Source: Cystobasidiomycetes sp. EMM_F5 (taxonomy: Eukaryota). From it: a DNA stretch of 64,000 bases. A program made the translations under genes and the position numbers. The stretch covers positions 1 through 64,000 of the forward strand of contig JBPGPT010000038.1 of NCBI GenBank assembly GCA_051047955.1, in the 5' to 3' direction. Below, piece by piece: positions 1,851-29,133 of the stretch (position 1 is the stretch's first letter; each line of letters begins with the position of its first letter). The notes below the pieces were generated by a model. The model worked only from the letters and a program-made list of their open reading frames with translations. It ran no database searches and was not told where the DNA came from.

Positions 1851-4575
1851 ATGTGCGCGCGTTCCTACTGCGTTAAGCTACAAGTCGACTGACATACTCT
1901 GATTTGCAGGACCAGCGTTGTAGGACTGGACATTGGCTCGAATACGAGTAAAGTGCGTAAAGGCAATATCACTGGCAACAGCTACTAAATCTTGTCTCCG
2001 TAATTAGATTGGTCTCGCCCGGTGAGCATAACATGGCCATGAACCGTGCACGCTCACAACGCTTACGCTCTTTATGATAGCAACCGAGGTATCGACATCA
2101 TTGCCAATGAAACGAGTAATCGTCTCAACCCGTAGGCATCGACTGTCTGCGTCACTCCACACTGCGTACACTGCTGATTTGAGCCTCTTCAACAGATCCC
2201 TGGTCGGTTTTGGCCCCCGGAATCGCTTCTGCGGTGAGGCAGCAAAATCGCAGGAGACCTCCAACTTCCGTAATACAGTTGGCTCGTTAAAACGCCTGAT
2301 TGGACGCTCTTTGTCGGATCCGGAGATCGAGCAGTATGAGAAGAAATTTATTCTGGCAGACCTCGTAGACGTAAAGGGGTCAATTGGCGCCAAGGTGAGA
2401 GCTCGAATCTACCGAGCGGTATGCGCTATCACAGCTCATGCTTTCTCTGCTACTGCGCATTCTTCAGGTGAACTACCTTGGCGAGCAAGTCCAGCTGTCT
2501 GCTACGCAACTCATGGGAATGTACATGGGTAGTCTTCGAGAAATTGCAGCAAAGGAGCACGGCGGAGCTGTGAATGATGTAGTGATTGCTGTTCCGGCAT
2601 ACTTTACCGACTCGCAGCGCCGCGCCGTCCTGGATGCCGCCGACATTGCAAATCTACATGCATTGCGCCTCATTAACGATACCACCGCTACTGCGTTGGG
2701 TTACGGTATTACGAAGCTAGACCTACCAGAGCAGGACCAGCCACCGCGACATGTTGCGTTCGTCGACATTGGCTATTCGGATTACCAGGTGTCGATTGCA
2801 GCTTTCAACAAAGGAAAATTGGTCATCAAGGGGACATCATGGGATAGACAGTTTGGTGGCAGAGATTTCGATTACGCACTGGCTCAGCACTTTGCAGCAG
2901 AATTCAAATCAAAGTACAAGATCGATGTTCTCAGCAACCCCAAGGCTATGTTCCGACTCCTCACCGCTGTAGAGAAACTGAAGAAGATTCTCAGCGCGAA
3001 CGCTCAAGCACCTCTCAGCGTTGAGAGTATAATGAACGATGTCGACGCTTCATCGTCCTTGTCACGGGATGATTTCGAGGGACTCATTGCCCCACTACTC
3101 GAACGCACGGTCGCGCCTCTGGAGCAAGCTCTCGCCGATGCCGGATTGACGAAAGAAGAAATCGACAGCGTTGAGCTCGTCGGTGGCTCCACTCGGATGC
3201 CGGCCTTGAAGAACCGTGTGCAGGAATTCTTTGGCAAAACACTCTCATACACCATTAATCAAGACGAAGCCGTTGCGAGAGGTGCTACTTTGGCTTGTGC
3301 AATTCTTTCCCCTATATTCAGGGTTCGTGATTTTGCTGTGACGGACATCAATTCCTTTCCCATCGATATTTGCTGGGAAAAGAATGACGTCGACAACGAG
3401 ACTTCGATTCGAGTCTTGGAAAAGGGTGCCACGGTACCAGCAAATCGGACCATCACATTGCGACGCAAAGAAACTTTCGATCTCGAAGCACGTTATTCTC
3501 CGGACAGTCGCCTACCGCCTGGCACGAACCCTTGGATTGGCAAATTCACGGTCAAGAATATCCAGCCGACCAAGCAAGGCGATCATGCTGTAGTCAAGGT
3601 CAAAGCACGTCTTGACATTCACGGTATATTTTCGTTTGGCTCGCCGTACGTTCTGGAGGAAAGCGAAGAGGAGGAGCAATCTACCCCGGCCGATGCCGCA
3701 ACTGAGCAGGAGAATGCCGATGGCGTGAGCAATGTCCCAAAGAAGAAGAAGACTATCAAGAAGGAAGTGCCAGGAATCTTTGGCTCGGCCGCATTGGACC
3801 GAACTTTCGTGGAAGAGATGCGCGAAGAGGAGGGCAAGATGTTCGAGTCGGACAAGCTCGTCGCGGCCACGGAGGACCGCAAGAATGCTCTGGAGGAGTA
3901 CATCTACGAAGCCCGTGATAAAATTGACGGGGCCTGGTCCTCGTACATGCCGGCATCAGACAAGGATAAGTTCCGTGAGCAGTTGACTGCAGCAGAGGAC
4001 TGGCTCTACTCTGAGGATGGCGAGGATGCAACAAAATCAGCTTACGTTGAGAAGCTGGATGTTTTAAAGAAAATCGGCGATCCGGTGCATTTTCGTTTTC
4101 GCGAAACCGATGAGCGTCCCAGAGCGCTTAAGGTCATTCGTGAAACGGTGGTGGACTTCATGAACAAAGCCACGTCAGGCGACGAGAAGTATTCTCACTT
4201 GTCCGAACAAGATCTCCAGTCTGTCATCGAGAAGTGTGCCAATACTCAAAAATGGCTGGACGACATGGGCGCAAAGCAAGCAGAGCGACGCAAGGACGAG
4301 ATCCCAGCCTTTACGAGTGCCGAGATTCGCAAGCGTTGCGATGAGGTTGCATTGTAAGTCGTTGACATAGAACTGGATCCAGAGCCTTACTAACAACTAC
4401 ATCCAGCTTCTGTCGTCCAATTCTCAGCAAACCCAAGCCAAAGCCAAAGACCACGGAAAAAGCATCCGAGCCCACCAAGCAGGAGAAGCCGGCTACGACG
4501 AACGGAGACTCGGAGATGCCCGATCTCGAGCCAGTCGACGCCAAGAAGGCAGATCCGGACATGGATATAGATTGA
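1851..4575 (+). CDS. SSE1: Hsp110/Sse1-type Hsp70-family chaperone (nucleotide exchange factor), multi-exon
   Basis: Spliced N-terminus MTSVVGLDIG..IGLAR NRGIDIIANETSNR; AKSQETSNFRNTVGSLKRLIGR; LINDTTATALGYGITKLDLP; ELVGGSTRMP; DRKNALEEYIY; last exon after the intron at ~4353 ends PDMDID*. Confidence 0.97.
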
Positions 4576-4835
4576 GATCTGGATGTAAATTAATGTGCTT
4601 TCTAAGCAGACAGCAGTTGCAATCTAGATTGAAGGCGGTTCTTAGGGCTAGTCAAGTTTTGCATGCGCACACGCGAGTAGATCGCGTTGGGCAGGTCACG
4701 AAAAATCCCGTTAACAAGTTGTGTGCGTAGCCTGGTACACGAGGAGGGACTAGCTATAAGGTGTTGCACGTTCACAACAATCACGATGAAGGAGGCGCAA
4801 TTGCCAGCTTCTGCAGTGCCACTGAGAATTCGAGT

Positions 4836-6950
4836 TTATACTGTAGGAGATAGAGAAGTAGTCAGTGCAATGTCGCACGGTATCACGTACAACACGCTTA
4901 CGAAGATACGTAAAGTATTCATTCTCGACGTCTGTTCGGTCATCTAGACCTTCCTTTCCATGAACTTCCGCTTCTGACGTCTGATGGTACTTTCGTTGCA
5001 TAGAGTAGTCGGTGATTTTCTCGTCAAGACCTAGTTCGAGACGCTTCCTCTCCTTGCGTTTCTGTAGCCGCATAAGATTGAGTGCTTGTAGCACGACCGC
5101 TGCAGCGAAGCAGCACCAGATTCCTAGGATGGCTTGCAGAGAGACGTGATATGTAGGAGCTTGTTGTGCACTGAAGATATACGGTGTCGCGATGTTGCCT
5201 AGAGAGTTGGCAGCGTTGAAAGTGCTGTGAAGAGGTAAGCGGCCTCAGAATTTGCCACCCTAGCGCTCAAAATCGCAACAAACCTAATACTTACGTATAG
5301 TAAACAGCCTTCTTGGTTTGACCTTTTAAGAGATTCCCAATGGTAATTGAGCGGCAGGGAAATGAACGGTCCGCGGGGCATAATGTTGATAGATAGGATA
5401 GATCACCCAGTCAGCCAAGCGTAGCACCACAACAACAACATAACGTTCTCTAACCGGCTGCATTCGCTCCGATCCAGGAGAGGAGTATAGGGTTGATACC
5501 GAAGAGTAGATTGAGCAGGTAAAAGCCGAAAAGAAGAACGCCTTGATTGCCTGGCGTCTTTGGGACGGCGTACATGAGAACGATTCCGATGAGAACAATA
5601 ATGACAAAAGCGAAGAGAATGATGGACTTGTTCTGGAATCGATAGGCTAGATATGAAGCCGTTAGAATCCCGATAATTTGTACTGCTCCGGTCGGTCCAT
5701 TAAGCAAGACAGACTGATCCGATGTGAAGCCAAAGAGCGTATTCAATATGATAGACCCAACTGGTAATAGCATTCAATTTAGCTGGGAGCCACTGGTGAA
5801 GACAACATGCAACGTACATGTTGACGAGACTGCCGCGCCTGCGTTGTTACAAAAAATCATTACCACGAACAGAAACCACTTGATCTCCGTAAACGCCTCG
5901 AAGACTTGGTACATCTTGAAGTCATGAGACACGATACCTTGCTGATTGGCCTTCAGGCGGTCGACTGCTTTAAGCTTGTCCTCGGCATTTAAAAACCTCG
6001 CTTCACCCGGCGAGTCGTGAGCCCACCAGAATGTAGCGATACCGACCATCACGGTAAAGAGTCCAAAGAGCAGGTAGACGGACTGATAGGTGTGCAGAGA
6101 CGTGGTAGGGGCCCGAGCCATGCCATAAACGACGAATGCAGATATCATTGTGCTGAGTCCGTAACATCCATACCACATTGCAACCCGCAGTGGTTGTTCC
6201 GAACGCCGATAGAAGGAGATTGTGATCAGACTGAATAGAGGCACAACCTGTATGAAAGCAGTGATTTAGCCACCGCGTCTCTGTGCTCTAGTGCCTAGAC
6301 AAGCCCTACAGCCGCTGAACGACAGGGTCGGCAATACCAGGACAGTCAATGAAAATCTCGAAGTTGCTAATTACAAGGAGCGCTTACCTTCAAAGCCCCC
6401 GAGAAAGAAGCGGGCGGCCATGAGGCCTCCATAGTTTGTCGAGCCAGCCATTCCCAAGAGAGCCACGGCCCACCCGATTACGATGACGGGTAAGATGTAG
6501 CGATACTTGAACTTCACGACAAGCCAGGCTGCAAGCGGCTGCACACCGAGTTGAGCATAGTATCCAATTGAGCCGATGTTGGGATAATCATTGCCGGTAA
6601 GATGTGCATCCGTCTTCAATCCGTAGACAGCGGTGAGACCGACAATACCTTTGTCGGCGGATTGAAGGAAATAAATCATACAGAGTAGAGAGAGAATGGT
6701 GATGTCTGTCTTGCGCAAGATACGCTTGTTCTGTAAGCCTACAAGTCAGATGAAATATTTTGGGCAGGAGAAGCCATTACGAAATTCCACGTACGTCTGC
6801 CTCAGAACAAGTCACGGTCCCCGGTTCTGCGATGTCTTTGCCTTGCTCAACGCCGGGAGCAAGATGATCCACATGTTCGAGAGATCCTTCACTTTCCTTC
6901 TCGCCAAGGTGATTTACTTGCGGAGTCGGGCGAGCCACTCCGTCCAGCAT
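4836..6950 (-). CDS. MFS transporter, anion:cation symporter (Dal5/allantoate permease-like) family
   Basis: Exons give RILRKTDITILSLLCMIYFLQSADKG, AARFFLGGFE, FYRRSEQPLRVAMWY, HDSPGEARFL, WIGANAAG and DDRTDVENEYFTY. Confidence 0.92.
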
Positions 6951-7873
6951 GTCGGCGGGAATCTCGGTCGAAGTGTAGTATTCTGCGACTGTGCTCTGTT
7001 TCAGGCTTGACTTTGCGTGGTTCTCTACCAGGTGGGTAACGAAGGGAGAGCACCGCAGTCTGCAGCTGGACGGCTGAGGATTTGGTACCGACTCACTGGA
7101 GGCCTTTGTTGCCCCATGTTAGCCGTTAGAGTTCCCCATGGGCATCGCACGCATGTAAGCGGTTAGCGAAGGCTGCTTATGCAGACAAAAATATCATCGC
7201 ATTCCGCCCTTCATTTGGGATCGCCCGGCCGCGGCAGACGAGAGATTTCGGCATAACATCGGCGGATTGACTGAAAGCACGTGGGAGGAAGATACACTTA
7301 AATGTGTACGAATACGCCTCTGACTTGTTGCCCTGAACATATATCCGCGAGGCTTAATAAGACTCATGGCGAGAGTGTCACAATACCTACCGTCGACTAA
7401 TCCTGCTATCTGAGGACTTACTTTCGCCGCAGTCCGGCTTGAATCAGTTTGGATCACTTTGAGCTATGTTGGCAGAGATCCGTCTCTGACTGCAATCTGC
7501 AGTGGTTATTCATGTGCGGTGCATACCTTTACCTTATGAATACCTTATTGAGCGGTTCTGTGAAACGCAGATTTAGTCGAGCAACTCAAGCCAGGCGTAT
7601 TCCAGGCGTCTTCCAAGCAGACACTTTCTCACATGGTCGTGCATAAAGCGCATAAGCATGAAGTCTTGATCGCTGTCCTCAAAGTGGGCAATGCATGCGA
7701 GAAAGTGGACCTGGCTACTCTAGTCCGACTCATTGACTGGAATCCGGTACATTGTCCACAAAACACAGGTATGACTGCATCTGTTGCGTGGCAACCGGTC
7801 AGCATACAATCTACTCCATAACATCATATTCTCGTCACGCCTACTAGCAAAAAAAAGGTCAATGAGCCAATGC

Positions 7874-9627
7874 TCAAATCGGACTTGTAATTCTTGACGA
7901 AAGTAGAGCGGACAGCTGAGCTAAATCCGAAGATCGGTCCAAACTGGTAATCAATGCCAAGATAGCTTCGGTGCGACTGTCAGAGACGACTAATTTGAGC
8001 ATTTTTTGGACCTTCATTCTGGAGTTTTGGATCGTCAGGCAGGCACCCAATATCTTGTATCACCTGCTTACAATATGTCTTCGTCACTGAGCCCAGGGAG
8101 TATCGCTCGTGCGGCTTTGAGTGTCTCGCTTACACTAGACCCATCGTTGAAAGTGACGGTGATCCGGCAGGCGAATTTATTGTTCTTGTCTTCGTCAAAC
8201 TCGGAGGCGTGCTCGTAAGTAACCTTTTTCTCGACAATCTCCCGAATTAACGGTCTGTCGATCTGTTCTTGCGTGAACTGCGTGACGAAAACCTCCCCAT
8301 CCAATAGCTGTGATGCTATAGCAAATCCAACAACCATTTGAGCAGCTACGGTCGGGACGGGTGCAGGTGGCAGAGGAAAACAGCCATGATGTATGGTAAC
8401 AGCAGATGCAGCGATATTGATGTTCTTGATGCTTGAAATATCATTTACTCGAGGATGCGCGTCTTGAATCTTTTCGAGTAGGTCAGCATGCTTGTACGAC
8501 TACCCCCCTTTCAAGCGGAATGCACTCACTTTCGCGAGACATTCAATTGGTGTCTGTACAGCTCCCATGGCTGCATGTTCTTTTATTGCGTAATGAAGGG
8601 TCTCCCATCTGACTCCCAGCTCGTCGCATACTTCATCAACAGCTGCGGGTCGCTCGGACCTGCTCCAAACTGAATAAAAGCCGCCATAGGGAACATCTAA
8701 TATCTGTTCAATGCTGTGCCGAAGAATCAGAATGACTGCAGCAATATGACACTGAGGAGACTGACCCAGTGAAACCAGATCGGCTCAGGAAGACGGCTAG
8801 CAGACCATTGCGGGCGGCGAACCCATGTTGCATTCGTTTGACCATTGCGCCCGCTTGAGCAGACATCAGGCCACAGGCCTGCGTTGCCGCAGTACCGAGA
8901 GCATGCTCTGTCTGCTGAGGACTGAGACCAAGGAGCTTTGAAACGGAAGCAGCGACCCCGATGTGACCTGGACAAATGGTTGAGTCATGTGTATCGATGT
9001 GGGCTGTCACACTGTCACTCACCCATAAGTGTCCCCGAATGGATGCCGCGGTTGAGCAGATCTACTCCACCAAGTGCGAGGCCAATGCGCGGGGTAACCT
9101 CCAGCCCCACTATCAGGGCCAAGAGTAGGTCATTGCCGGTAATCGAATGTCCTGAAGGTCCAAGGGATCCGTCAGCCAAGACCCTCACCATACAGCATCC
9201 CACTAACCTTTGCTTGTCTCGTGTTCTATCGCCGCAATAAGCGATGGCAACATCAGACTCATTGCATGATTGGGAGACCGGCGATGGAAATCATCCAATT
9301 CGAAGCCTTGTACGAAGGAAGAGTTTAAGAGCGCCGCACACAATGGGCCTACTTTCTGTGTTATGCGGCACCGTCGCAGCTCAGCAAAGTTTCGTCATTT
9401 CTTCACATCAAACTGACCTTGTCCCAACCCCAGATTCCACAGGCTCCGGGCGACTCAATTTCTAGCAATGCCTCCGTACCAATGGATGACCAAGGAAGGT
9501 GTGACGCGACCAGACCGCATGCAATGCCATCCAGCGCCATGCATTTTGCTCGCTGCTGTACTTGGGTCGGTACATCCTCGAGGCGCAATTTGCATATCCA
9601 CTCGGTTAGTTCGGTTGTGACAGACAT
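7874..9627 (-). CDS. MmgE/PrpD-family enzyme, cis-aconitate decarboxylase (CadA/ACOD1)-like subgroup
   Basis: LDGIACGLVASHLPWS, VQGFELDDFH..H, GLEVTPRIG, TQACGLMSAQAGAMVKRMQHGFAARNGLL, VPYGGF and ITVTFNDGSSVSE are colinear with Aspergillus terreus CadA as recalled. Confidence 0.92.
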
Positions 9628-9732
9628 TGCGGAGCGTGTAGTTGCTGTGTGAAGGCAAGCATGGTGTGCCAAATGACCCTACAACCGTGCCAGAACGACC
9701 CCGGAGAGCCGGCCGACCGAGTGGAAAAGGCT

Positions 9733-9742
9733 CGGACTTCCG
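9733..9742. promoter_or_regulatory. Putative Zn2Cys6 binding site CGGA-N2-TCCG (CGGACTTCCG)
   Basis: Inverted CGG triplets in the ~200 bp divergent promoter between the PrpD-like gene and the TF; the same motif occurs in two other cluster promoters. Confidence 0.6.
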
Positions 9743-9830
9743 ACTCTTGATCGGCAGCGTTAGACCCCGTCCCTTCTCCACTCGTGCAGCGAAGGCATCT
9801 CGTTAACGGCCACAGCCGTCCACTCACAAT

Positions 9831-12680
9831 ATGGCTCATGATCTCGACATTAATGGCAGTACTCAGACCATGCAGGTGTCGCCCTTGCTCAGCAGGACCG
9901 AATACACGCCAGTCAACGTTACCTCTAGATCTGAGAACAATGACCGCGCTCGGAAGCGTCTGAAACGGTGCCCAAATGCGTGTGTGGAGTGCCGTCGGCG
10001 GAAAGCGAAGGCGAGTCAGTGTTTAGTCGCCCGACGGATCATGGGTCTGAGTGGACTTCCGATAGTGCAACCGGCAGACTCCATGTTCGGGTTCGTCCTG
10101 TTTATCTCCTTCGGGCGAGACGACGTGAACTCAAGCGCGAAGTTTGCAGAATGCATCAAACGAGACGAAGCACACCTATGCTACGGGGCGATGCCCGTCG
10201 CAGACGGCCGGGAAGCACTGGAATCATTGTCTTACATCCCCGCCAGTATATCGAGTCTGAATGCCCTGGCCGAGCGAGTCCGAGCGCTCGAGGAATCGCT
10301 AGGCGGGGTCAAAAGGGCCGCTACACCAGGCGGCAGTCAGTGTTCCGACAATATAGGCGGCAGTACTAAGAATGGGCGACCCGCCCAAGAATCTGTACGC
10401 GCCGATTCGGGCCTGATAACACCTGCAGAAGCTAATCTCGAGGATAGTGAGGCCAATCCACGAAGTTCTCATGCATTATGAACCACTGCTGAATGCTCCA
10501 CTACTCCTAGCTGTTAGACAAATTGAGCAACATGTGCTTGAAAGCTTCGCGGAAACCGCTTTGTCAATCGATGGCCGTGCGCAATTCTGCAAATCTACTC
10601 GGGTCGTTTTGGCTGACATCCATACCTCGGTCCTTGTGCAGCTGTCACATTTGCCAGCAATGCCGGCGATCGCATCCGTGATCCCCTGCTCAGCACGAAA
10701 CGCGCGTCCATTTGGCTAGCTGTGGTTCCATCTCGTACGCTCAAGGCTTACACTCTAATCACCGACGGAGCCGCGCCCCTTCGTCAGCTTGTCCGTGCTC
10801 TGCCTAGTCGAGGCAGATGCAGATTATTGCTCGACATGTTTTATGAGTGTATCGATAAAGACTGGCATTATCTGCATCGACCGTCATTTTCAGCTCAATG
10901 CGACGAATTCTTATCCCTAAACAATGACAACGATCTCCGTGATCTCGATCCCGCCTGGCTAGCCTTGTTCACCAATACTCTTGCGTTGGGAGCCAGAGCT
11001 CAGAGTATTCGATTCCCCGATGACACGTTAGGCGAGGCCCTGCATGTCAAGCTCTCGGCAATGAGCGAGCTCTGTCTGGCATACGCCGAGTGGACCACCC
11101 GACCCCAAGTGAGGATAGTACAGGTACGTCAGTTCCCGTCTACGAACATAGCTCTGCGGAGCTTACCACAACGCGCACCGCTCCCGAAGTAGACCCTAAT
11201 TGGTATGACATGCCTGCTATCACATAGCGGCTCCCTCTTCTTCAGCAACCCGCAGGACATGGATCTTGGCGGTGCTTCTCGGGCAAGGCGATTGCTCGGA
11301 GTGGCTGTTTCGCTTGGTCGCTCCCTAGGACTTGATCGCGTGACGTTGTCGGCAACTGAAGAACAGTGCCCCTTTTTTCGAGACGCTGCTTTCGCAAGCG
11401 ACGGACCGTCAAGTTCTCATAACGAGATGGGCAGAAGATGGTGGTGGTGTCTTGTCGCTCTTGATGGCAAGTCATGCATGGGATCCCGAACACATCGACG
11501 TCACATACAGCCTGGAAGCTGTCAGTGTTTGGAGAACATCGTCCGACTCAGAAGCTGAGTCGATTGTCTTTCCAATCACAGACTGTACACCGTTGCCATC
11601 GCGCAGCTTGGATACCGACCTATCGATCGAAGTTAAGGGAGCAACTTCGAGCGATGCGGATACTATCATCTATCAAGCTCACCTCATAAACCTGATTGAT
11701 AAGTATCCCACTGGAAGAGGACTTAGCTACGGGGATATACGAATGCTGGATGGACTGTGGCGACCGCATTTCCAGGAGCTACTTGGCTGCGATGTCGGCG
11801 ACCCTGGCCATCAGTATATGCAAGGAGCTTCCTTTAAGCCTCTGCGTCTCTCTCTGGTGGCGGGACTTCATAATCGTGTATGGCCCATCTCAAATTGCGG
11901 TGGAGACTAGGGCTGACGAGATACATAGCTTCTGCAGATTCATAGACCGTATCTGTAAGTGTACTCCACCAAGGATTGTTAAGAGACTTAACTGACTGGC
12001 ATTCGTGTTGAAATAGGCTGAAGGGATTGACAGACGCCAATTTCAAGCAATCGTATCAGACATGCGCCGATTGTGCGCTTGCCATCATGACTGCATATTC
12101 GGCAGAGTGCATTCGAAATACGATCCTTTTCGACTGGTGGTCGTATAAGCATATTATAAATGCGCTCATTGTCATGACACTGGTCTATATACACGATCGA
12201 GGCAGCCAAATACGGCCATGCAGCCCCATCGATTGGGCACAGGTGAACGCACGCACTCTGTTTCTCAAGGGGTCGACAGCGCACAATGAAGTAATCAGGA
12301 AAACAGCGCAGCAATGCTTGCGTCTTCTGGAAGCTTTGTGCTCGGCGGCCGCTACACTGGCTGGCAAGACTAGCGGAAGGGATGCAGTTATCGCTCTTCA
12401 GAGCCTTGTACGAGAGTCGAAGAACATGCCTGAGCAACCAACGCAATCTTCGGAACCCGCTGAGAATGCAGCGGCTGCTCGAACCCTAGACGTCTTCAAT
12501 GAGACCTGGCCGTTTTCCCCCAGCGACAGACACTTGAACGGCAGCGATAGTAACAGCCTCTTGGATCAGACGACTTTCGATAGCGACCTGTTGAAGTACT
12601 TCGACTTTGATGGGATTGTGACATCGCATGAGCAATACTCGAATTTCGGAGACTTTGACTGGTTAGTACAGCAGTACTGA
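9831..12680 (+). CDS. Zn(II)2Cys6 transcription factor with fungal TF middle-homology region
   Basis: Spliced cluster CVECRRRKAK-CNRQTPCS-ECIKRDEAHLC; LPSRGRCRLLLDMFY..WHYLHRPSF; LGRSLGLD; EMGRRWWWCLVALD; acidic C-terminus DFDWLVQQY*. Confidence 0.9.
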
Positions 12681-12797
12681 AAACTTAGATATCGGTCAGC
12701 GTTGTAGAAGTGGGCTGCGCACAGAACAGGTGTATAGATACAAAGCAATCCTTTTCACGTAACATTAGCATATATATACAATGAGTTGGATTTGCGG

Positions 12798-14215
12798 TCA
12801 GACTCCGTTTGTGTAGGCAGTACTGCCAACGGCAGCATCAAACTTGAGTACTTTGTCCAAGCCTGTTAAGCACATCAGACACATGCATGCCGTAGTGAAA
12901 CATGCCAGGAGCTCACCGACCAGATTGAACATGTCTCGAGGACTGAGTATGCTCTCTGTTGCCAACGGTGGTTGGTTAAGACCAGTCTGCCTGGTGTACG
13001 CGTATGCAGTCAGAGCGGCATTACAGACAGGACCGAGACCCGCTGTCGGCATGATCTGCCGACACTGACATATCAGCAACACCTTCGGCAATTGTGAAGA
13101 ATCACGCATACAGCCAGCTTCGCTCCCATTCGCTCACAGTCTGACGTGGACCATAGCGGAGTACTGCCTCCGGCGACAAGGTTTAGGAGAACGGGCGTTG
13201 GTGCCAGAGCGGCAATTGCCTTGACTGCTTCTGCTTCGGAAGTCACGCCTTCGAGAAACGCTACGTCGGCTCCAGCTTGTACAGCAGCGTATAGGCGGCT
13301 TATAGCCGTGTCGATGCCGTGACTTTGATCCAATTAGCATAATTTGATGCACTGCGTCCGCCGCAAGATAAGGCTCACCTTTGCAAAGCGTCAGACCGAG
13401 CGATAATAACCTGGAAAAGAGGCAATCGATTAGTTCGGAATGCGAACTGCAACCGCGGCCTTGCGCGACTCACCATATCGCTACCACCGCCGATTGTGCT
13501 TCTGGCATACACGGCAGCTTTGATACGGCGTACAAATTCATCGACAGTAACGATCTCCTTTCCGAGCAAGTGGCCGCAGCGCTTGTTGGTGACTTGATCC
13601 TCGATGTGCAGTCCCGCAACCCCTGCACGATGCTAAACAGATATGCTTTTATTGGCGTGACTCCCCTGGCAATGCAGTGTACCGAGACTGCTTACATATC
13701 TGTGAACAGTGCGTTCGATCTGCGAGGTTGAGCCAAAGCCGGTATCGGCGTCACAAATCAACGGGGGACATCCCGGGAGATTCGCGATCACTGTTGCAGC
13801 TTCTACCTGCAGTGTGGGTCAGTCGTAAAGTAAATATGTGTTGTTTCACGAGTGTCTCGACACACAAAATCGTCCATTGAAGCAAAAGCCAAGTCAGGTA
13901 GGCCAAGTCGGCTAGCGGTTACTGCTGCGCCACTCATGTCTGTACACAGCAGCATAATTAGTAATGGCCGCCGGCAGCCTGACGCCTGCGCCTCACATAG
14001 GCATTCAAAACCCGTCCGGATAGCGGCTGTATCAATAGGATCAGATAGACGGAAGATTTCGGTTTCATAGGCGACGCACCATGAGCGGTGATCCCATCGT
14101 AGACTCCAGGGGCAACGACTATTCCGTCTCTGTCTAGCAAACGTCTCAATCGCGTGGACTGAGGTACCCAAGCACTCTTATGGCCATTCGACAGCCCATT
14201 CCCGTTGATGGCCAT
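12798..14215 (-). CDS. Isocitrate lyase/PEP-mutase superfamily C-C lyase (2,3-dimethylmalate lyase / oxaloacetate hydrolase-like / PrpB-like)
   Basis: [79 protein letters not shown]. Confidence 0.93.
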
Positions 14216-14328
14216 TCCTGTGGTTTGACGTAGGATGAAGGAGGATGCGATGTGGAAGCAGATCAATACGAGTCCGGATCACAAGTAGTCTCATCTTCAG
14301 CTGTTTGCGCCGGCTGACGGAGATGGAC

Positions 14329-14386
14329 TGGAAATCCGTAACGCTCCGGGCCGCACGACCGGAAATCCATATATTCGGAGCTCCGA
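14329..14386. promoter_or_regulatory. Three CGGA-N2-TCCG-like sites upstream of the lyase gene
   Basis: TCGGAGCTCCGA (14375-14386, perfect palindrome) plus one-mismatch copies TGGAAATCCG (14329-14338) and CGGAAATCCA (14360-14369). Confidence 0.6.
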
Positions 14387-14783
14387 TGAGGTCGTAGTCT
14401 GCTCACAGCGGCTGGACGAGTATAACATGAAGAGCGACAAAGCGATGAAGAGCGCCCGTACGGTCACCTTCACCTGTGTACGGTCGTCGATGTTGTCGGA
14501 CCTTGGGCAATCTCCACTTTATGCGAAACTCATCAACTTGAATGGCAAAGTACGCGTGCAATAGGTTAACATTGAGCAGAAGACTGTAGCCTTACTGGAG
14601 CAACAAGGCTGAACCTGATTCCTGTCTTACCGCAACCATAAGTTACTGATGGAATGGCAATGGACATATTGTACATATACACAATTTGTCGAAAACATGT
14701 GGACGAGCTAGTAACCATCCCAACAGACCTTTTGAAGTACTCCACGTATCTCCACCGCGCTCGATACACTTTGTGCGAGTCCG

Positions 14784-16833
14784 TCAAATTGAATATCTGA
14801 ACGACAAATTCTGCTTGTCCGTAAGATCCCGAAATGCACGGTCCACAAGTGCGACCTCGCCCAATGCATCGCGACGCTTGTTCTCGCGCCATGCGGTATA
14901 GATATAGGCTATAGTGATCAAAATCGATCCGATGGCGCAAATCGTGATTGCGATGAAGCCGGTTGTCTACATTGACTTTTCAGCAAACATCGTTTTCAAA
15001 TCGACACTACTTACGTATTTGGGAGCCTCGGTAGCGAGGAAGAACTTAGGTCCTGCCGCGTTTGCTGCATTGGTGCAGATAACAAGCCACGCGGCGCATA
15101 TCGTTTTCTTCGTATGACCAGCCACCTTCGTCGAGATTAACGTTAGCGGACCCTACGTACGATTCGGGATGACTCACATTAGCTGTTGCAAGTCCAAAAT
15201 TCACCGAAACCGCGCCAAGGAACGCGGACTATTGAGGGATGCGCCCTTAGCATACTTCGCCGTCACGAACTGCATTCTCCGTACCATCAAGTAAATCCCA
15301 GCGAAAAGGCCTTGCTCATTGGTGGAGGGAAGAACCCATAGGAGTATGGCTCCCAAGAGGACGAGCGATTGACAGCCCAAGGAAAGAAGGCCCAAGCAGT
15401 TTCGAAAACGTAGACTGACACCCAGAACAATAAGAAGGATGACGATAAGCATCATACCCGTGGGTATGCTCAGCACCATAGCCCTGAGTGTTTCAACCGC
15501 AAGCTGGCGTCAGCCAATGCGGGACGTGCGGATGGACACCATACAGACTCGCCTGTATGCTGATGTTTTGAGCAATTGTTTGAACAGAATCTGGGAGAAC
15601 GCTGAGCTCTGTGAAGTCAGTTGCATCGAGTCAGTCGTTGTCTCTTGTACATTTGGCGCTGGGGCACACACCAAGCTGTTTGCAGGAGTAATGGCGAATT
15701 GCATCAAGCCAACGGCAATGACACGGAAGTCAGTGATAGCCTCCCACACCTATCAAGAAAATGACTTCAGCTTGTACAGTTCTGTATAGGGTGGACAGCC
15801 CGTACCTGCTCTTTCTTGAAGTGTCTGTTCTCGATGCCGGACTGGTTGATCCGGAGACGCTCTACCGCCAGATATCGCTGCCTGGGTGTGAGCATCCATG
15901 CTGTAACGGGACTATCTGGCAAGAAGAAGAAGAGAAGGACACCAAACACCATAGTGACCACGCCCCAACAGTAAAACATATTTCTCCAGGGTGCAATCGC
16001 GCCTTGCAAGTGAAGCAAGCCATAATTCACAGCGACTGTTATGGGAATGCTACCTCCGGCTGATTGCAAGAAAGGAGACTCAAGTTAGCATAAACGGCTT
16101 CGGCACAGTCTTGACAATTTGGCTTACCACCCATCCACCAGATACTGTGTCGTGGCACTTGTTCGTGCTGTGAGGCCTCGTCGGTATGACAGCATGCTCA
16201 AGTCGGCACATTTGCTCACCTTAGTGTACCACGCGCCGATGAGTAGAATGAAGCAAGGCTGCACGCCAGCCTCGCATAAACCCAAAATAGTTCGTTGTAC
16301 CATCGTAGTCGGGTATGAAGTGCACCATGCGGTGCTCATGCAGGCAAGTCCCCACAGAAACACGTAAATGGAGCACACTCTGCCCGTGCGAAATCTTTGC
16401 GCAAGGAAAGCTCCGATGGGGGCGCCGCAGACAAAGCCGACGTAGTAGATCGTGGTAGCATTCGAATACCGACCAGTGTTGAGTTGGCCATTCTCGGTGT
16501 AGAAGAGGTCGAGATCCCTGCATCATCGTTGTCAGGGCGTGTCTATGTAAGACTGCACGTCACTACGAAAACTTACGAAGATGCACCAAAGTTGATGGCA
16601 GTTGACAAGAGGTTCTTATCGGTATAATTCAAGCCATACGTAATAACCATGAGTGGCATGAGGACGAAGTCTATCTTTCGGACAAGCTTCTTGAGTTCTT
16701 GCGGGGTTGCGGGAGGTTCATCGCGGGCAGCGGCCAGTACCTGTGCTCCCGCATCCTGGAAGGTTTCTTGCTGTCCTTCAGCGTCGACTTTAGGGTTGTT
16801 GATGAATGACTCTTCGCGCTTTTCTTCTGACAT
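14784..16833 (-). CDS. MFS transporter, Dal5/allantoate permease-like family
   Basis: KKLVRKIDFVLMPLMVITYGLNYTDK, RTILGLCEAGVQP..GAWYTK, FFLPDSPVTAWML..AVERLRINQSG, AGHTKK, C-terminus DLTDKQNLSFRYSI*. Confidence 0.92.
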
Positions 16834-16978
16834 GCTGGCTCTGGCCTTACGCGGAAGGGTGGGAAGATAGTTATCGGGCGTCGTACTTAGTGCTCGAATG
16901 TATTATGGCATGAACAGGAGCGGCTGGGTAGAAGGAGGCATCGGCTGGGGTTCTCCAGATGGGGCTTTACATAGATGT

Positions 16979-17107
16979 CGGAACTCCGCTGCTCATGGAA
17001 ACGCTTGGCCGGAGTCCGCACGGAGTCCTGGTCATCGAAAGAACTCAGATGCCGCCCGGGTGCCTCGTCTGATCCAGCCGGCTCGACGGAGAATGAGCGG
17101 ATCTCCG
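16979..17107. promoter_or_regulatory. Two CGGA-N2-TCCG sites upstream of the second MFS gene
   Basis: CGGAACTCCG (16979-16988) and CGGATCTCCG (17098-17107). Confidence 0.6.
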
Positions 17108-17537
17108 AGGAGGCAGCATCAGATGATACGAAACTTGTACGAGTAAGTGTCTGGCTGATTTCTTCCAGCATCCGAAGTTGGCACCCACGGAAAGGGCGCG
17201 CAGGAACAACGATTACCATAATTACTGTGAGATGCTGCGTGATTGCTAAAGTGTCGCTGCCATCCAAACACTTTGTAGCTGATACTGCGCGAACCTAACG
17301 CATATAGCAGCGCAGCCCATCTTGCTGGCTGCTGCATATGCCAGCGAGGCTCGCCATGCTGCGCAAGATATATACCCGCCATTCTGCTTGTTGTGCATTG
17401 ACAATTTTCCCGATGGGGCTTGAGACTCTTGCCTTTAGGACAAAGTCCATCAACGAGACGCTCCCCGACGGCATACTCGGTCCTAGCTGAAGGTCATCAA
17501 CAGCGCCCACTGAGACTGCTGCATCGCCAAGATTGCC

Positions 17538-19288
17538 ATGTCGTCCGTCACACCAGACCTGCCAGTAGCTGGTGGTAACCGGGATGGCGCTGTCTCGGAG
17601 CATGCATCAATAGCACCCCTTCGCAAGGCGACAAAGGACATGACCAAGGGTGCGTACCCTGTGTGGTCACGTCACATCGCGGACAGTTGCTGAAACTATC
17701 GTCTGTGGCATGACAGCTGAACGGCGAGCCTTGCAAGTAAATGCAACTAGCAACGCCCTACTCTGTGTGAACAATAGCTGACAGACGCTCACACAGGAGC
17801 AACAACGAGAACACAATGCCAAAGAACGAGCGGCTAGGGAATCTGGCGGATCCGATGCCAAAAGAAGCGACAAGGTCAAAGCCAAAGCTAAAGACAAGGA
17901 TATTGTTGCCGAGAAGCGGAAAGCGGCAGTACCTGCGCCTGTCAAGTCTCAAAGCAAATCGCTCCCCGCTTTCGCTCTGCCGCAGCCAGGCGATCTGGGG
18001 TCGAATTCTTCAGCATCCGTCATGAGTCTTTTCCTACATTTAGACGCCCCGAAACCAACAAGATCCCTAAGTACGAAAGCGCAATCTGAGATGGTTCATC
18101 CCTGCATACAGCGCCTAGCTCTTCAGTATGCCGACTTTAAGATTGTCGGTGCCAACGCCAGATGTTTGGCCATGCTGGAGGCCTTCAAAATCGTAAGAAG
18201 ATATATCGAAACTTGCCCACTTGTCGAGGTACACTGATCCGTGTTGTAATTTCAGCTTATATCGACATACATAGTCCCGCCTGGGAAGTCCTTGTCACGG
18301 CATTTACCTACGTATCTATCGCCTCAGATCGTCCACTTAGTCAAGGCCCGCGCGCCGCTAGCGGTCAGCATGGGCAACGCTATTCGTTATCTGAAATGGG
18401 AGATATCGCAGATACCTCCAGAAATGCCAGACGATGAGGCGCGAGAAGTCCTCTGTGAACGCATCAACCACTTTATACGCGACCGCATTCTCCTGGCTGG
18501 CCAAGTAATTGAGGAAAACGCCATCACGAAGATCAACAACGGGGACGTCGTCATGACATTTGCCAGGTTAGTAGTAGTTTTATGGCTTCCTACATTGCCT
18601 TGCTGACACGGCAATTGTCGACAGATCTTCCCTGGTCGAAGGCGTCCTGCTTGCCGCGAAACGTACAGGCAAAGCATTTTCTGTGGTCATTGTCGATTCC
18701 CGACCAATGCACGAAGGTAAGCCATGCAGCGCAAAAGTCACGTCTGGACTTACTTGGAATGTTAGGGCGGAAGATGCTCAAGTCTCTGTTGGCCAATGGA
18801 ATATCCTGCTCGTATATACTACTACCAGCTATCGGCGTAGTGCTTCCCACTGTGTCGTTGACAATACTCGGAACGCACGCTATGCTGTCCAATGGAGCCA
18901 TGTTTTCTCGCGCAGGAACCGCGATGGTCGCCATGATGTCCAAAGGGGCCGGTATTCCGGTCATCTGTTGCTGCGAAACTTACAAGTTCAGCGACCGCAT
19001 CATGCTTGATAGCATAGTGGGTAATGAAAGAGGTAAAGCAGGCAAAGAAATACAATCGATGCTACTTATCTGACTGTCGTAAATACGAACTGCGCAGGCT
19101 CCACGGCGGACATCTTGGATGGCGATAACAAGGATGTTGACAATGCACATCTCGGAGTCCTCAACTTTCTATACGACGTCTCACGTCCCGAAGACGTTAC
19201 GGCAGTAGTCACAGAGACTGCCATCATACCTGTGCAATCCGTTCCATTCGTCCTGAGGGAGCATAAGCCCATCAGCTTGGGCGGCTGA
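17538..19288 (+). CDS. GCD2: Translation initiation factor eIF2B delta subunit
   Basis: MTKAERRALQE, SLFLHLD, VHPCIQRLALQYADFKIVGANARCLAML, SMGNAIRYLK, VIVDSRPMHEG, LGTHAMLSNGAMFSRAGTAMVAM, CCETYKFSDR, LYDV. Confidence 0.95.
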
Positions 19289-20118: not shown

Positions 20119-21021
20119 TCAGACGGGTGTCATCGCATCCTTTCCAATTGCCCAGTCAATGCCTCCCTTGATATGCTTGAGAAAGGTAGGATCCTGCCAG
20201 AGGACAGTAGCGTGCCCAAGGCTACTGTACCACACTCGCCCGGTGCCGGCCAAAGGTCCCTCTCGCTGAGCCTCTCTGAACCAAGCGATGGGAAATGGAT
20301 GACCACCCTGCCTGTCCTTCTGTATATTCTTAAGTGGATCATCGAAAGATGCAGGATCAACAGTGACCAAGAGCTGCGAGTGCAAATTATCTGAGGTGTT
20401 AGAGGACTGTAAAGCCAGGCATGATGAGCTTTGCACCACATACAGAAACTCCTGTCTGCCGTGGATCACTCTGGAAGAAGTAGACCTCCTCATGCAGACG
20501 CCACGATGGTGGCAGACAGACAGTCGAGGGATGAGCGTGCTGGTGTATTGTGAAAGTAGCAGGTTGAAATTTGGAGTGGCGATCAAGTATAGCACCAAAC
20601 GCCCGAGTATATGCCTCAACATCCCGAAGGGCACTTGTAGCCGAGTGTATGCCGATAAGTGCTCCACCACTGAGGATGAACCGGGACAGATTGGACTTTT
20701 GTGTCTTATTGTCAAGAACGTCTCCGCTCGGTGACAGGAATATCAGCGCCTTGAAACGAGACAACAATTCGTAGTCGTCAAAGACCGTTGGGTCTTCGAT
20801 ATATTCGCTTTCGTTGTATCCGAAGTCGCGAATTGCAGATACAGCAGCCGCGGTAGACTCGTGTCGATAGAGCTATGTTAATGTGGGCGATGGGCGGGTT
20901 ATTGACAAGGAGGTCAGCCAGGTACGGAAACAGAGAATTGCTCAGACAATGATCTGACAAGTCTTCCCACCATAGTTCGACTAAAGAGCAAGAAAGGCTT
21001 GACAGTATTCAGGTTGGACAT
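20119..21021 (-). CDS. ThuA-like (trehalose utilisation; class I glutamine amidotransferase-like fold) protein
   Basis: LLFSRTM/LYRHES, FLSPSGDVL, GGALIGIHSA, HPST..LP..W...EEVYFFQSDPR, PIAWFR, GRVWYSSLGH..W.DP.FLKHI.GGIDW. An alternative in-frame ATG lies at 21063. Confidence 0.87.
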
Positions 21022-21274
21022 GTTTCGACGTGGGAGCTCGAAGCCTTGGTCTACAATTCCCATCCGTTCGCAAGTCTGTACAGAAGTGCGTAAGGTAAAG
21101 CGACTTCGGCGAGCACATACGAGGCTTCCGTTCACAATTGATGAGGTTCATGTAGGATAGTGTCGTCACGGCTTTTAAATGCCGATCTCTTGGGCGGCCC
21201 TCAACTTGGAATATCACGGGTTTGTCAACGTCCTCTGCTCACCGCTCGCACCATAGTGCATGTACTCCGTCATT

Positions 21275-24107
21275 ATGGACTACGGATCCGAGGAATGGTC
21301 AGTGACACGTTGGCGATAGGACAGGCTTTGCGGGCTGGGGTGGCGTTCGTTTCCTGTGCGGATCCGAACAAAGCAGACAACAACCAGCCTATGAGCTAGC
21401 AACAGCAGTTTGAGTAGTTCGGAAGTCACTGATCATTCACAAAACAGGGCTTCGACTTCGTCTTCCATATCTAATCCTGTGTTCGAACCGGCTGGCCAAA
21501 GTCCCGCTCGTCGACTCGCCAGTGGTGTGAGGAAGCTGAAGCCCCTGAAGCTAGGATCTTGTACTGGTGATTTGAGGCAACACTCGCTAACGCACGCACT
21601 GCTCAAAGCTGAGAAACATCGTCATTACCGCAATGCAGCTTGTCGTAAAGCGAAGGTGAAGTGTGACAGAGGAGGTAGAAGGCCTTGATTTATGGCTGTA
21701 GCGACTGACTACTAATGATGAGCAACACGGTCCGTCAGGTGACAACGCCCGGAGCCAAGCACCAACTACGAGATGTGGCAGATGTGTCAAGGTGAATGAC
21801 GATTGCATATACGAAGTGCACAAGACTGGCTACAAACATCCACCACTGTATGTGTCACCATCACTGCGCGCATCGTACGCAGCTGACAGTGAAGATGTTG
21901 TCTGTTGCCCACTTTCTCCGTCTCAGTCACCGCGTGATAGTGACAGAGACGGACCGTATGGCTGTCTCGCAACCCTTAGACGCCAGTGCAAGAGACTCCA
22001 GCGTTATTCCAGGCCGACACAATGACCCTCTTGCGGATGATCTCGCTAGGCATGCCTCTGCCGTGCCAGCACACGCCACTTTTCCGACGCTCGCCATAGG
22101 TACTGGTACCAAATTTTCGGACGATTTATTCGAAAGACCAGTAGTCCCGAATGCAGCGTCTACAAAGTTGTTCAAAGTCAAGCCGAAAAGGGATTGCTTG
22201 CCGGCGGAAGATCCCATTAGCAAGGGAATCTTGACTGAGGATCAAGCAGTCAATTACTTCAATTTGTAAGCCGAATATCATCGGGCATCCTTCGCCGCAG
22301 GCTCGTCTGACTTGTGTGTATATATCAGCTATCTGCTGCATCTGCATCCATGGAGCCCCGTTTTGAACACACGGCTGCATACGTTTCAATACGTTCGTCA
22401 ACATTCGACTTTCCTGCTGTGCGTGGTCTGCCTTCAGAGCGCAGCCTATCAAGCGAGCGATAATGTATGGAGAACACTCGCATCACACACAAAGAAAGTA
22501 TGCGGTACCATCTACTCCGAGGGATACCATTCTCTCGAGATAACCGCAGCCTTTGCTCTCTATGCTTCGCGACTGTCTTATGGAGAACCACATGAAATTG
22601 ACCAATCTTGGATACATCTTGGTACAGCTCTTCGCATGGCTGTAGAGCTGGGTCTGGACGAAATTAGCACGCTGGCTTCAGCTTATCCGATGACGCCTCA
22701 TAGAGCAGCACGGCAGGACTGGATAGAACGTCGGGCTGCGGAAAAATTATGGCTGAATCTGTATATACTAGACAGATCGTGCGTGCGAGATATAGAAGGC
22801 TATATCGACGATGGCATTGGAATGCCTTGTGACGTGGCTAACGATTTTGTCGCATCAGGATGAGTGGACAAATGGGCCGGCCGACAATGCTGGATGTCTC
22901 ATCGCAGGTGCTGCAACATGTCGAGAGCTGGTAGATGATCTACGAAGCTTATGATGCGCAACGTCTTACCTCTGACCTTTCACCGTCAGGATGGCTTCTC
23001 CTGGCACCGAGCAAGCCGAGCGGCTTACCGCTTCGCAAGCGCTCTTGCGGAGAGTTTTGGTGAGATTGTATCGCCGGTAGCGCCGGCCATAGCACGCCGC
23101 CTGAGCTTGTCACGCGACAGGAACGATCACACAACGCCAGTATGTCATCAGATCCACATCTGGAGCCTACAATCACATTGTGTCAATGGTATGATAAATG
23201 GTATCTGCAAAGCAGTAGGCCATAACATAATGCTCAATTTATTCGCATGCTGACAAGTCTTTTGCCGTAGATTCGTCATCAAGATGTAACTATCACCATG
23301 TCCGTATTCTTGCGCTAATGAGGGATACTAGCAGTGCCTCTGAGACAGAGAAGCGGCACGAAGCGCGACAAGTAGTACAGATCTGGCTGCATGATATCGC
23401 ATCGTCCCACAAGGTCGAGCATGCCACGACTTTGGCTTTGGTAGCAATGTCGCATGCCATAGTCGTTTTATGCCAAGTACGACTTACACACTTTTATCAA
23501 ACAATGAATCGTGATGATTGACGAATGAGTCCCTGCAGGCTGTGTTGCGGCTGGACCCAGGAGTAGTCACAGCCGAAGGCAACGAAGACCGGTCACTGGC
23601 CGGTCAACTGGTCGATGAGCTCAGTCTATCTGCAGAGCAGTGTACGCAGGGTACTGGCACGCTACGCTTCCATGCAGCATATCTGAAGCTGTGTCTTCAT
23701 TGGTTCGATCGGAAGAAGCTACACCACAACAGGTCGCAAGCGAGCCAGCACGTCAACCACGGTAAGCCTACTATTTTATTCAAAAGGATGTCTCATTCGG
23801 ATACTAACAGGTTCTTCTAGTCCTTGCTCAGCCTCCGCGACAGCATGCTCTTCATAATGAAGATCTGCGAGGCCCCCAGGATTCAATTCAAACAGGGCAA
23901 CTGTCTCTAATACAAAACGCTCTTTTTCCGGGCTGGACCGAGACTATGCCATCTCAGGATGATTACGCACTGCCCAATGACGATGTATGGACGGGTCAGA
24001 GTCTCCACGCTGACCTAGATGATCCAGTATTGGCCAGCTGGCTAGCGCAACTCACAGAAGACAGCTATTCCATCGGGCACATTGCCATGGACGTCGGCGA
24101 AAGATAG
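21275..24107 (+). CDS. Zn(II)2Cys6 transcription factor
   Basis: Spliced cluster SCTACRKAKVKCDR..RCGRCVKVNDDCIY; DPISKGILTEDQAVNYFN; HLHPWSPVL; WIHLGTALRMAVELGL; EKLWLNLYILDR. Start and end are estimated. Confidence 0.85.
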
Positions 24108-24380
24108 CTCTGTAAAAGCTGTTATTATGACATTTGATTGCACAATCACGAATGCATATTTCCGTGCAAAGTGCTGACGACGATCTGGTCTGCTACGTGC
24201 ATACATAGCAACAAGATAATACTTTGCAGTGCCGAACAACAGGTCTGCTGTATCGCCATATTTCACTCCACACTGACCATGTCAAATATAGATAACCAAA
24301 TTTGCATAACGTTTACTCTCTCTGCATATGGTCCATTGTGTTGCTTCCCCATACAGTGACAAACCCTGCTATTCGCATAG

Positions 24381-26911: not shown

Positions 26912-27452
26912 ATTTATTCGGTTTGATGTAAGAAGTTGTCGATGTCGTCTTGTGCTATCTGACTGCGGATGTGTAAGGAGGTGTAGAAACGCAACAGAAG
27001 ACGGATCAAACGACAAGCTTTAGAAGACAACGAGCGGGGTTGGGTGTGTCTCGCGATTGTGCGAGGTCCAGAAGTGAAGGCCGGACGGGGTAAACCATGG
27101 GGTAACGTGGCATGAGCGCGAAGAGCGAGTGGTTATCATGACACCCAAGCTCGCCGTAAATGCCGTGCTGTGAGGCTTCGTCTCCGGCTGAGCCCCGTCG
27201 AAGCTTGAGTCGGGACTCGGACAGCGTGCTGCCATCCCGTGGGTGAACGGCATTCACGATGTACAGCGCTGTACATGAACCCCGACCACAATCATGTGCG
27301 ACATTCTATGCCTGACTGGCTGTCTAAGCAGTCCGAATCCGAGTGCACGTAGCTACGGTAACATCGATGCACGACGCAAAACCCCACAGAATCGCATCTC
27401 TTGACCAGCAGCATACTTTTGCTCAAGTTGGCTGTTATCATCCCACCGTGGC

Positions 27453-28654: not shown

Positions 28655-29133
28655 TGATGATTCGACCGGCCTGCATAGTCTGGAGCAAGGCTGGCCGTAG
28701 AATGATACAGGCACCATGTGTATCATTAGCACATCAATGAATACACACACGCAGTGTTTCTCTGAGGATCCTGTGCTCGTAGGGCATATTTACACAACAT
28801 CAGTGTGTTATTGCGCTGCGGATTAGATGCCCGACAGTCCCCACAAGAATTCGAACGCAAAGACCGGAAAGTGATGAGAGTATAGGTTGGCTATCGATCA
28901 TTTCACAAGCTCCGAGCATATGAGTCTCTTCTGTGCAGCAGCCCGCTTGAGCTAGACAAGTATGTCGCCACCTGTATCGGCACTCAAGTGCCGGTCGCCT
29001 AGAGGCCGGTCGGTCTAGACTTGCGATGTTCGAGCGCCGGATCCGCAGGCTATTGAGAACCGAGTGAATGCTTCACTGCGGTTGTGGTTTGATCACGACG
29101 TCCCTTGTCCCTCCGCTCCTAACTACCCTAATC

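Follow-up and report, generated by a model that had tools for sequence, protein, structure and literature searches.

Lyases of the 2,3-dimethylmalate lyase (DMML) type split the C2-C3 bond of 2-hydroxy-dicarboxylates, and fungal DMML is not known to have an established physiological role (as reportedly stated by Narayanan et al. 2009). Fungal genomes carry many CadA-like MmgE/PrpD proteins, as well as DMML/OAH-like lyases (OAH, oxaloacetate acetylhydrolase) that lack known natural substrates. The MmgE/PrpD enzymes share a mode of action, in which a 1,4-dicarboxylate backbone is converted through an enolate, and the characterised members are methylcitrate dehydratase, the fungal and animal cis-aconitate decarboxylases (CADs), iminodisuccinate (IDS) epimerase and methylsuccinate isomerase (PMC12290011). 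The same text places an MmgE/PrpD-type (S)-(R)-methylsuccinate isomerase in bacterial itaconate/methylsuccinate clusters, as an accessory enzyme in the breakdown of branched C5-dicarboxylates (PMC12290011). Here, one enzyme of each kind was found in a group of five adjacent genes, together with a Zn2Cys6 transcription factor (TF) and two MFS transporters, in a stretch of 64,000 nucleotides (nt) from Cystobasidiomycetes sp. EMM_F5 (contig JBPGPT010000038.1, positions 1 to 64,000; assembly GCA_051047955.1), hereafter called the window. Judged from the sequence, and with a probability of about 0.5, the group serves the breakdown, under the control of the Zn2Cys6 factor, of a substituted C4-dicarboxylate that is taken up from outside and resembles itaconate, citraconate, aconitate or an alkyl-malate. 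The link between the two enzymes, first proposed in an initial annotation of the same DNA, gains support from two sides: their families are paired in bacterial operons, and within the window a CGG-type palindrome is restricted to three of the promoters in the cluster.

The region is eukaryotic and intron rich, and bacterial-style lists of its open reading frames (ORFs) give fragments only. Spliced models were assembled from coordinates, and all five are open from ATG to stop. The genes and the palindromes in their promoters are as follows (aa, amino acids).

4836..6950, minus strand: MFS1, a putative anion:cation symporter (ACS; Dal5-type) transporter; 8 exons, 531 aa; Pfam MFS_1
7874..9627, minus strand: PrpD-like MmgE/PrpD enzyme of the CAD/IDS-epimerase branch; 7 exons, 471 aa; PF03972 and PF19305
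9733..9742, no strand: CGGA-N2-TCCG palindrome in the 203-nt promoter from which the PrpD-like gene (ATG 9627) and the TF gene (ATG 9831) diverge
9831..12680, plus strand: Zn2Cys6 TF; 9 exons, 763 aa; six-cysteine spacing
12798..14215, minus strand: DMML-like C-C lyase of the PEP-mutase/isocitrate-lyase superfamily; 9 exons, 318 aa; KRCGH gating-loop motif
14376..14385, no strand: CGGA-N2-TCCG palindrome in the lyase promoter, 161-170 nt before the ATG
14784..16833, minus strand: MFS2, a putative ACS (Dal5-type) transporter; 10 exons, 516 aa; Pfam MFS_1
16979-16988 and 17098-17107, no strand: two CGGA-N2-TCCG palindromes, 146-274 nt upstream of the MFS2 ATG

The 38 modelled introns are 45-132 nt long and of the GT-AG type, except for one GC-AG intron. 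All five genes that the initial annotation had claimed are present where it placed them, as seen from the open spliced models and, for all but the TF, from Pfam matches on exons, and the span that it gave runs from the MFS1 stop codon (4836) to the MFS2 ATG (16833).

The assignment of the PrpD-like enzyme could be narrowed. Single exons within 8068-9678 of the minus strand matched MmgE_PrpD_N (2e-19, 5e-12 and 6e-8) and MmgE_PrpD_C (1e-16) in Pfam. Among solved structures in the PDB, the protein is closest to human and mouse CAD (1.6e-26), followed by IDS epimerase (1e-25); the 10 PDB sequences matched at an E value of 1e-5 or better comprise CAD and IDS epimerase chains and B. subtilis IRG1, and 2-methylcitrate dehydratase is not among these 10. 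Identity as a true PrpD, that is, a 2-methylcitrate dehydratase, was rejected for this reason, and the CadA/PrpD-like enzyme of the initial annotation is confirmed as a CAD/IDS-epimerase-type MmgE/PrpD protein rather than PrpD proper. A family search returned 1354 matches; the named ones are mostly fungal, are annotated as "immune-responsive protein," MmgE/PrpD or aconitate decarboxylase, and are 50-58% identical over the N-terminal domain. Bacterial relatives are 37-39% identical to the window protein.

The core active site of CAD consists, in human numbering, of His103, His159, Lys207 and Lys272 (PMC6789909). In the alignment, the equivalents of human CAD (hCAD) His103, His159 and Lys207 are retained in the PrpD-like protein, which also has a lysine in the invariant family column matched to hCAD Lys272. 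These core residues are common to the whole superfamily and, as alignment evidence, are no proof of CAD activity. Outside the core, hCAD Asp93 is replaced by Glu and Thr97 by Phe in the window protein, matching the fungal family consensus, and hCAD His277 aligns with Met in a fungal relative; the A. terreus enzyme likewise departs from the mammalian Asp93, Thr97, His277 and Tyr318 (PMC6789909). The window protein keeps 53 of the 58 columns that are at least 95% conserved among fungal relatives and among bacterial relatives with and without operon linkage.

The second enzyme is of the kind that the initial annotation had named. Pfam PEP_mutase/ICL matched the lyase exons at 13073-13632 of the minus strand; the KRCGH motif, encoded in exon 13632-13474, aligns with the same motif of DMML, OAH and PrpB, and other superfamily motifs, including the Asp-rich metal-binding ones, are found in the spliced model. 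The claim of a DMML-like lyase stood up to comparison with solved structures, in which A. niger DMML (3fa3, 6e-52) ranks ahead of OAH (2e-43) and PrpB (~1e-28). Identity is 49-53% to fungal homologues and 41-47% to the bacterial operon lyases described below. Judging from these conserved motifs, both enzymes look catalytically competent.

Public models of the two enzymes exist. For the PrpD-like gene, an identical exon fragment clusters with NCBI protein EMMF5_005621, and a lyase exon is identical to EMMF5_005623, both from Cystobasidiomycetes sp. EMM_F5. These models, of 350 aa (PrpD-like) and 243 aa (lyase), leave out exons that homologues have, including, in the lyase, those with the metal-binding motif; the rebuilt 471-aa and 318-aa models align end to end with full-length relatives. 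A search of the HMMER library gave mainly exon-sized fragments, with three clusters only at 50% identity or more, and a word-indexed search for homologues of the 132-aa C-terminal exon, run with the "longer" lengths, gave no matches. PDB searching with the exon at 8530-8712 likewise returned chance-level matches only. A paralogue of the PrpD-like protein, EMMF5_004862, is encoded on another contig of the same organism and is 56% identical. It is annotated as a single 893-aa protein with a TF-like C-terminal half, and probably represents two adjacent genes merged by annotation. The TF-like half had no match in the window by tblastn and no similarity to the cluster TF, so the enzyme-regulator pair was not duplicated as a unit.

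Phylogeny of both enzymes, a check that the initial annotation had called for, was carried out with FastTree, with local support values only. In the tree of PrpD-like proteins (137 rows), the window protein and its paralogue lie within a clade of 53 rows, consisting of database and low-GC metagenome sequences, that includes the named fungal members (support 100); the second clade has 84 rows, 79 from bacterial genomes and 5 from low-GC metagenomes. In the lyase tree (148 rows), the window lyase falls in a clade of 103 database hits with named fungal members (support 100), where it groups weakly with Agaricales and is separate from 45 bacterial operon lyases. Because each enzyme falls in a clade with named fungal members, both are, on the evidence of these trees, of fungal descent and not the product of recent bacterial transfer.

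The TF gene is transcribed divergently from the PrpD-like gene. Once two introns are removed, its product displays the canonical six-cysteine spacing C-X2-C-X6-C-X5-C-X2-C-X8-C, in agreement with the Zn2Cys6 regulator proposed initially; Pfam scored no such finger because it is split over three exons. The TF model was curated by hand and restores conserved TF motifs, and models from automatic intron chaining were discarded as implausible. The first TF intron, 10011-10065, lies inside the zinc finger and is the GC-AG intron, with the sole non-GT donor among the 38.

Inverted CGG repeats are the type of site bound by Zn2Cys6 factors. The palindrome CGGA-N2-TCCG occurs four times in the 64 kb, compared with 0.8 occurrences expected from shuffles, and all four sites precede start codons by no more than 300 nt: the shared PrpD-like/TF promoter has one, the lyase promoter another and the MFS2 promoter two. 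No other palindrome with 4-nt halves, at any gap from 0 to 6, is common to three of the four promoters. Such sharing by three promoters was reached in 6 of 1000 promoter sets obtained by first-order resampling and in 21 of 1000 sets of random window segments of equal lengths. The more general form CGG-N4-CCG is not enriched (15 matches against 12 expected), and no exact k-mer of 8-12 nt is common to three promoters.

The TIGR00893 (2A0114) profile represents the ACS (Dal5-type) family, TC 2.A.1.14, whose members are largely anion importers. For each transporter gene, this was the best NCBIfam match of two of the three exons tested, which would fit the two Dal5-type anion transporters claimed at the outset; the matches reach 35-64 bits per exon, far below the cut-off of 395 bits, which was made for whole proteins and for bacterial members. 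MFS1 and MFS2 have no detectable similarity to each other by tblastn at 1e-3 and, on that comparison, are not close paralogues. Neither matched any of 80 metagenome loci (see below) by tblastn at 1e-5, and look-ups in the ESM Atlas gave generic MFS clusters only.

The MFS1 model includes a micro-exon of 5 nt (6314-6310, minus strand) between introns of 73 and 62 nt. Without it the gene looks frameshifted, so the apparent frameshift is explained by the micro-exon. All seven MFS1 introns are seen in spliced contigs from three of three small runs (X1-X3), which come from one study, share ~15% of the words and are in no case on record as RNA; contigs of X1 and X2 carry the micro-exon. Within 4400-17400, the contigs cover 4557-7017 (MFS1) only and are uninformative on the other four genes. 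They differ from the window by single bases at 5321, a synonymous change at an exon start, and at 6975; because of these differences, the RNA is suggested to come from another strain or allele.

To place the pair of enzymes in a wider context, a pattern scan with the PrpD-like family alignment was used to collect 80 metagenome and 80 prokaryote genome loci. In the prokaryote genomes, 34 of the 80 PrpD-like loci have a lyase of the same superfamily within 8 kb, mainly directly downstream, and 30 of these 34 also encode the large subunit of an aconitase-family enzyme. The lyase is paired with the PrpD-like gene in 16 of the 80 metagenome loci as well, all 16 on high-GC bacterial contigs. The operon lyases belong to the PDP/DMML/OAH group. 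Pfam annotation of seven such loci gave, in this order, a regulator of the GntR/FCD, IclR or TetR type, MmgE/PrpD, PEP_mutase, Aconitase, Aconitase_C and sometimes PEBP, the two aconitase domains marking a hydratase of two subunits. The hosts are mainly Actinomycetota, including Streptacidiphilus, Tsukamurella, Catenulispora, Mycolicibacterium, Nocardia, Pseudonocardiaceae and Solirubrobacteraceae, with a few Alphaproteobacteria. In the PrpD-like tree, 31 of the 34 lyase-linked genes form two clades of 6 and 28 rows, the latter together with 3 unlinked genes. The bacterial gene order suggests that the MmgE/PrpD enzyme would make or expose a substituted maleate, which would then be hydrated by the aconitase-type enzyme and cleaved by a retro-aldol reaction.

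A PEBP protein is encoded in 20 of the 80 prokaryote genome loci and often closes the operon of PrpD-like enzyme, lyase and hydratase, for example, at 14115-14750 in locus L008 and at 11431-12003 in L013. PEBP-like proteins also accompany the PrpD-type dehydratases of fungal maleidride clusters; by that analogy, the association hints at a maleate- or anhydride-type intermediate.

Taken as a catabolic cluster, the five genes suggest the following scheme. The acid would be imported by an ACS-family symporter, for which MFS2 is the likelier candidate, with MFS1 possibly contributing. A cytosolic PrpD-like enzyme would act on the 1,4-dicarboxylate via an enolate, by decarboxylation, double-bond shift or epimerisation, and would yield a substituted maleate or the correct stereoisomer of an alkyl-malate. 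Hydration, if needed, would be left to a housekeeping aconitase-family enzyme encoded elsewhere; it would be superfluous if the PrpD-like enzyme epimerises an alkyl-malate. Finally, the DMML-type lyase, with the cysteine of its KRCGH loop, would split the C2-C3 bond of the 2-hydroxy acid, releasing a short carboxylic acid together with a 2-oxo acid, which would most likely be pyruvate. Both enzymes are placed in the cytosol because their N-termini reach at most ~17 residues beyond those of solved homologues and neither protein ends in an SKL-type signal. The best guess for the substrates would be branched C5-C7 acids akin to itaconate, citraconate or aconitate.

Several observations weigh against this reading. 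The first concerns the hydration step. Outside the cluster, Pfam was run on 150 of the 153 listed ORFs of at least 95 aa, a scan that genes made of short exons only could escape, and none of the 150 contained a domain of polyketide synthase (PKS), fatty acid synthase (FAS), citrate synthase, aconitase or a mitochondrial carrier. For PKS, FAS, citrate synthase and the mitochondrial carrier, this agrees with what the initial annotation had stated. With the cluster exons included, Aconitase and Aconitase_C had no match anywhere in the window. The self-sufficient two-step route put forward in the initial annotation was therefore not upheld, given that the bacterial pair comes with an aconitase-type hydratase in most of its loci and the window is without one; as it stands, the two-step route is probably incomplete. 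Second, the palindrome test was post hoc, with the motif drawn from the same promoters in which it was counted (p ~0.006-0.02), and the palindrome is absent from the 923-nt region upstream of MFS1, whose membership in the regulated unit, as far as promoter sequence goes, is doubtful. Third, both enzymes sit on long branches, and the PrpD-like protein departs at four of the 58 conserved columns. One of its changes is His283Gln (exon 5, 8530-8712), the loss of a family-invariant histidine that the paralogue retains; the column aligns with a human histidine nine residues past the Lys272-aligned position, which is not His277.

The remaining points on this side concern conservation among fungi. No lyase was found in the available flanks of the ~12 metagenome loci that have a CadA-like gene and look eukaryotic (L001-L007, L009, L010, L012, L014 and L034, seven of them with at least 3.8 kb on both sides), and in Fonsecaea multimorphosa, the sole species in both hit lists, the two genes are ~90 locus tags apart. 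Co-location in other fungi, which had been anticipated, was thus not seen in these fungus-like loci. This is the pattern to be expected if the five accessory genes were chance neighbours with unrelated roles and the two enzymes shared no common pathway, a possibility that would also accommodate the different TF-like sequence beside the paralogue EMMF5_004862, the appearance of MFS1 alone in the RNA contigs and the post hoc nature of the palindrome statistics. Chance proximity is nevertheless considered unlikely: it leaves unexplained why both families are independently paired in 34/80 genome and 16/80 metagenome bacterial loci, why the 64 kb has its four palindromes in three cluster promoters and nowhere else, and why the layout is so compact, with enzyme and regulator diverging from a 203-nt promoter.

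Somewhat less likely again is a cluster for the production and export of an itaconate-like acid in the manner of A. terreus, in which cytosolic cis-aconitate would be decarboxylated, an MFS protein would export the product, the Zn2Cys6 factor would switch the cluster on, and the lyase would be a passenger or a supplier of precursor. With CadA-like, MFS and Zn2Cys6 genes, the locus has three of the four components of the A. terreus cluster, and the PrpD-like protein does belong to the fungal CadA-like family. In the tree, a weak grouping (support 92 and 80) puts the window protein and its paralogue near P0206, which is labelled as a cis-aconitate decarboxylase, but identity to that protein is just 40% over the full length. 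A mitochondrial carrier domain was found neither within the cluster nor among the 150 outside ORFs, the transporters appear to be of the ACS importer type, and the promoter palindrome is common to the lyase too. Moreover, the bacterial relatives reside in operons with catabolic-type regulators, a hydratase and the lyase.

Formation of oxalate for acid secretion, with the lyase acting as an OAH, is very improbable: OAH is the second-best solved relative (2e-43), but DMML is better (6e-52), and at the position of a Ser in the OAH chain 3lye the window lyase carries Pro, as DMML does, in a column that we take to be the OAH serine marker. True OAHs are marked by an active-site serine (PMC3256194).

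Outside the cluster, the initial annotation had named SSE1 and GCD2 as housekeeping flanks; an Hsp70-family and an IF-2B-family gene are indeed present at the level of Pfam, and the exact names go beyond what Pfam establishes. A second accessory gene group (20122-29472, from Pfam matches) lies beyond the eIF2B-family gene. The Pfam-based features in these parts of the window are the following.

2032-4354, plus strand: Hsp70-family gene, flank
18250-19070, plus strand: IF-2B-family (eIF2B-family) gene, flank
20122-20872, minus strand: ThuA-like protein
22270-22860, strand not given: Fungal_trans transcription factor
24902-25777, minus strand: sugar transporter
29068-29472, strand not given: short-chain dehydrogenase

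The enzyme families of the catabolic cluster proposed here are known; their combination with the regulator, the palindrome and the bacterial mirror is not described in the literature searched, and neither a fungal cluster of PrpD-like and DMML-like genes nor the bacterial operon was found in it, most subscription journals and supplements being outside its reach. A tentative extension, put well below even odds, is that the yeast cluster and the actinobacterial operon are two forms of one undescribed, CoA-independent pathway. In such a shared pathway, the PrpD-like enzyme would prepare a branched C5-C7 di- or tricarboxylate such as itaconate, citraconate or an aconitate, hydration would follow, and DMML-type cleavage would give pyruvate and a short acid. 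If this were true, it would provide a physiological role for fungal DMML-like lyases and for many orphan fungal CadA-like paralogues, and it would add a route independent of CoA for branched dicarboxylates, relatives of itaconate among them, compounds that are relevant to soil carbon turnover, to lichen and plant surfaces and to biotechnology. The cluster and its bacterial mirror offer a concrete handle on these orphan families, with one enzyme of each kind tied to a regulator and to putative acid importers.

Among the systems available for comparison, the actinobacterial operon pairs the same two enzyme subfamilies, with a dedicated regulator adjoining them as in the yeast cluster, and its PrpD-like proteins share the 58 near-invariant columns with the fungal family. 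It differs in having a hydratase in 30 of the 34 lyase-bearing loci, whereas the yeast window has none; conversely, the yeast window has putative ACS transporters and a Zn2Cys6 factor in addition to the actinobacterial set, and the fungal proteins form separate clades. The lower half of the 2-methylcitrate cycle (PrpD, aconitase and PrpB) likewise employs an MmgE/PrpD enzyme, a hydration and a lyase of the PEP-mutase superfamily in sequence, there on a substituted tricarboxylate. However, the yeast enzyme is not of the PrpD type, the yeast lyase is nearer to DMML than to PrpB, and there is no methylcitrate synthase. With respect to bacterial nicotinate fermentation, in which dimethylmaleate hydratase is followed by DMML, the yeast lyase is most like DMML, and the scheme of a substituted maleate that is first hydrated and next cleaved suits the bacterial operons; in contrast, no nicotinate-pathway genes are present here, and the step before the yeast lyase would be an MmgE/PrpD enzyme. 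In the bacterial methylsuccinate pathway, CoA esters are processed by a transferase, a hydratase and a citramalyl-CoA lyase (PMC12290011), and none of those genes is in the window. Finally, the itaconate cluster of A. terreus (cadA, mttA, mfsA and a regulator) resembles the yeast cluster in the adjacency of CadA-family, MFS and Zn2Cys6 genes, whereas the yeast locus has no mitochondrial carrier among the ORFs scanned, adds a lyase and carries transporters apparently of the ACS type.

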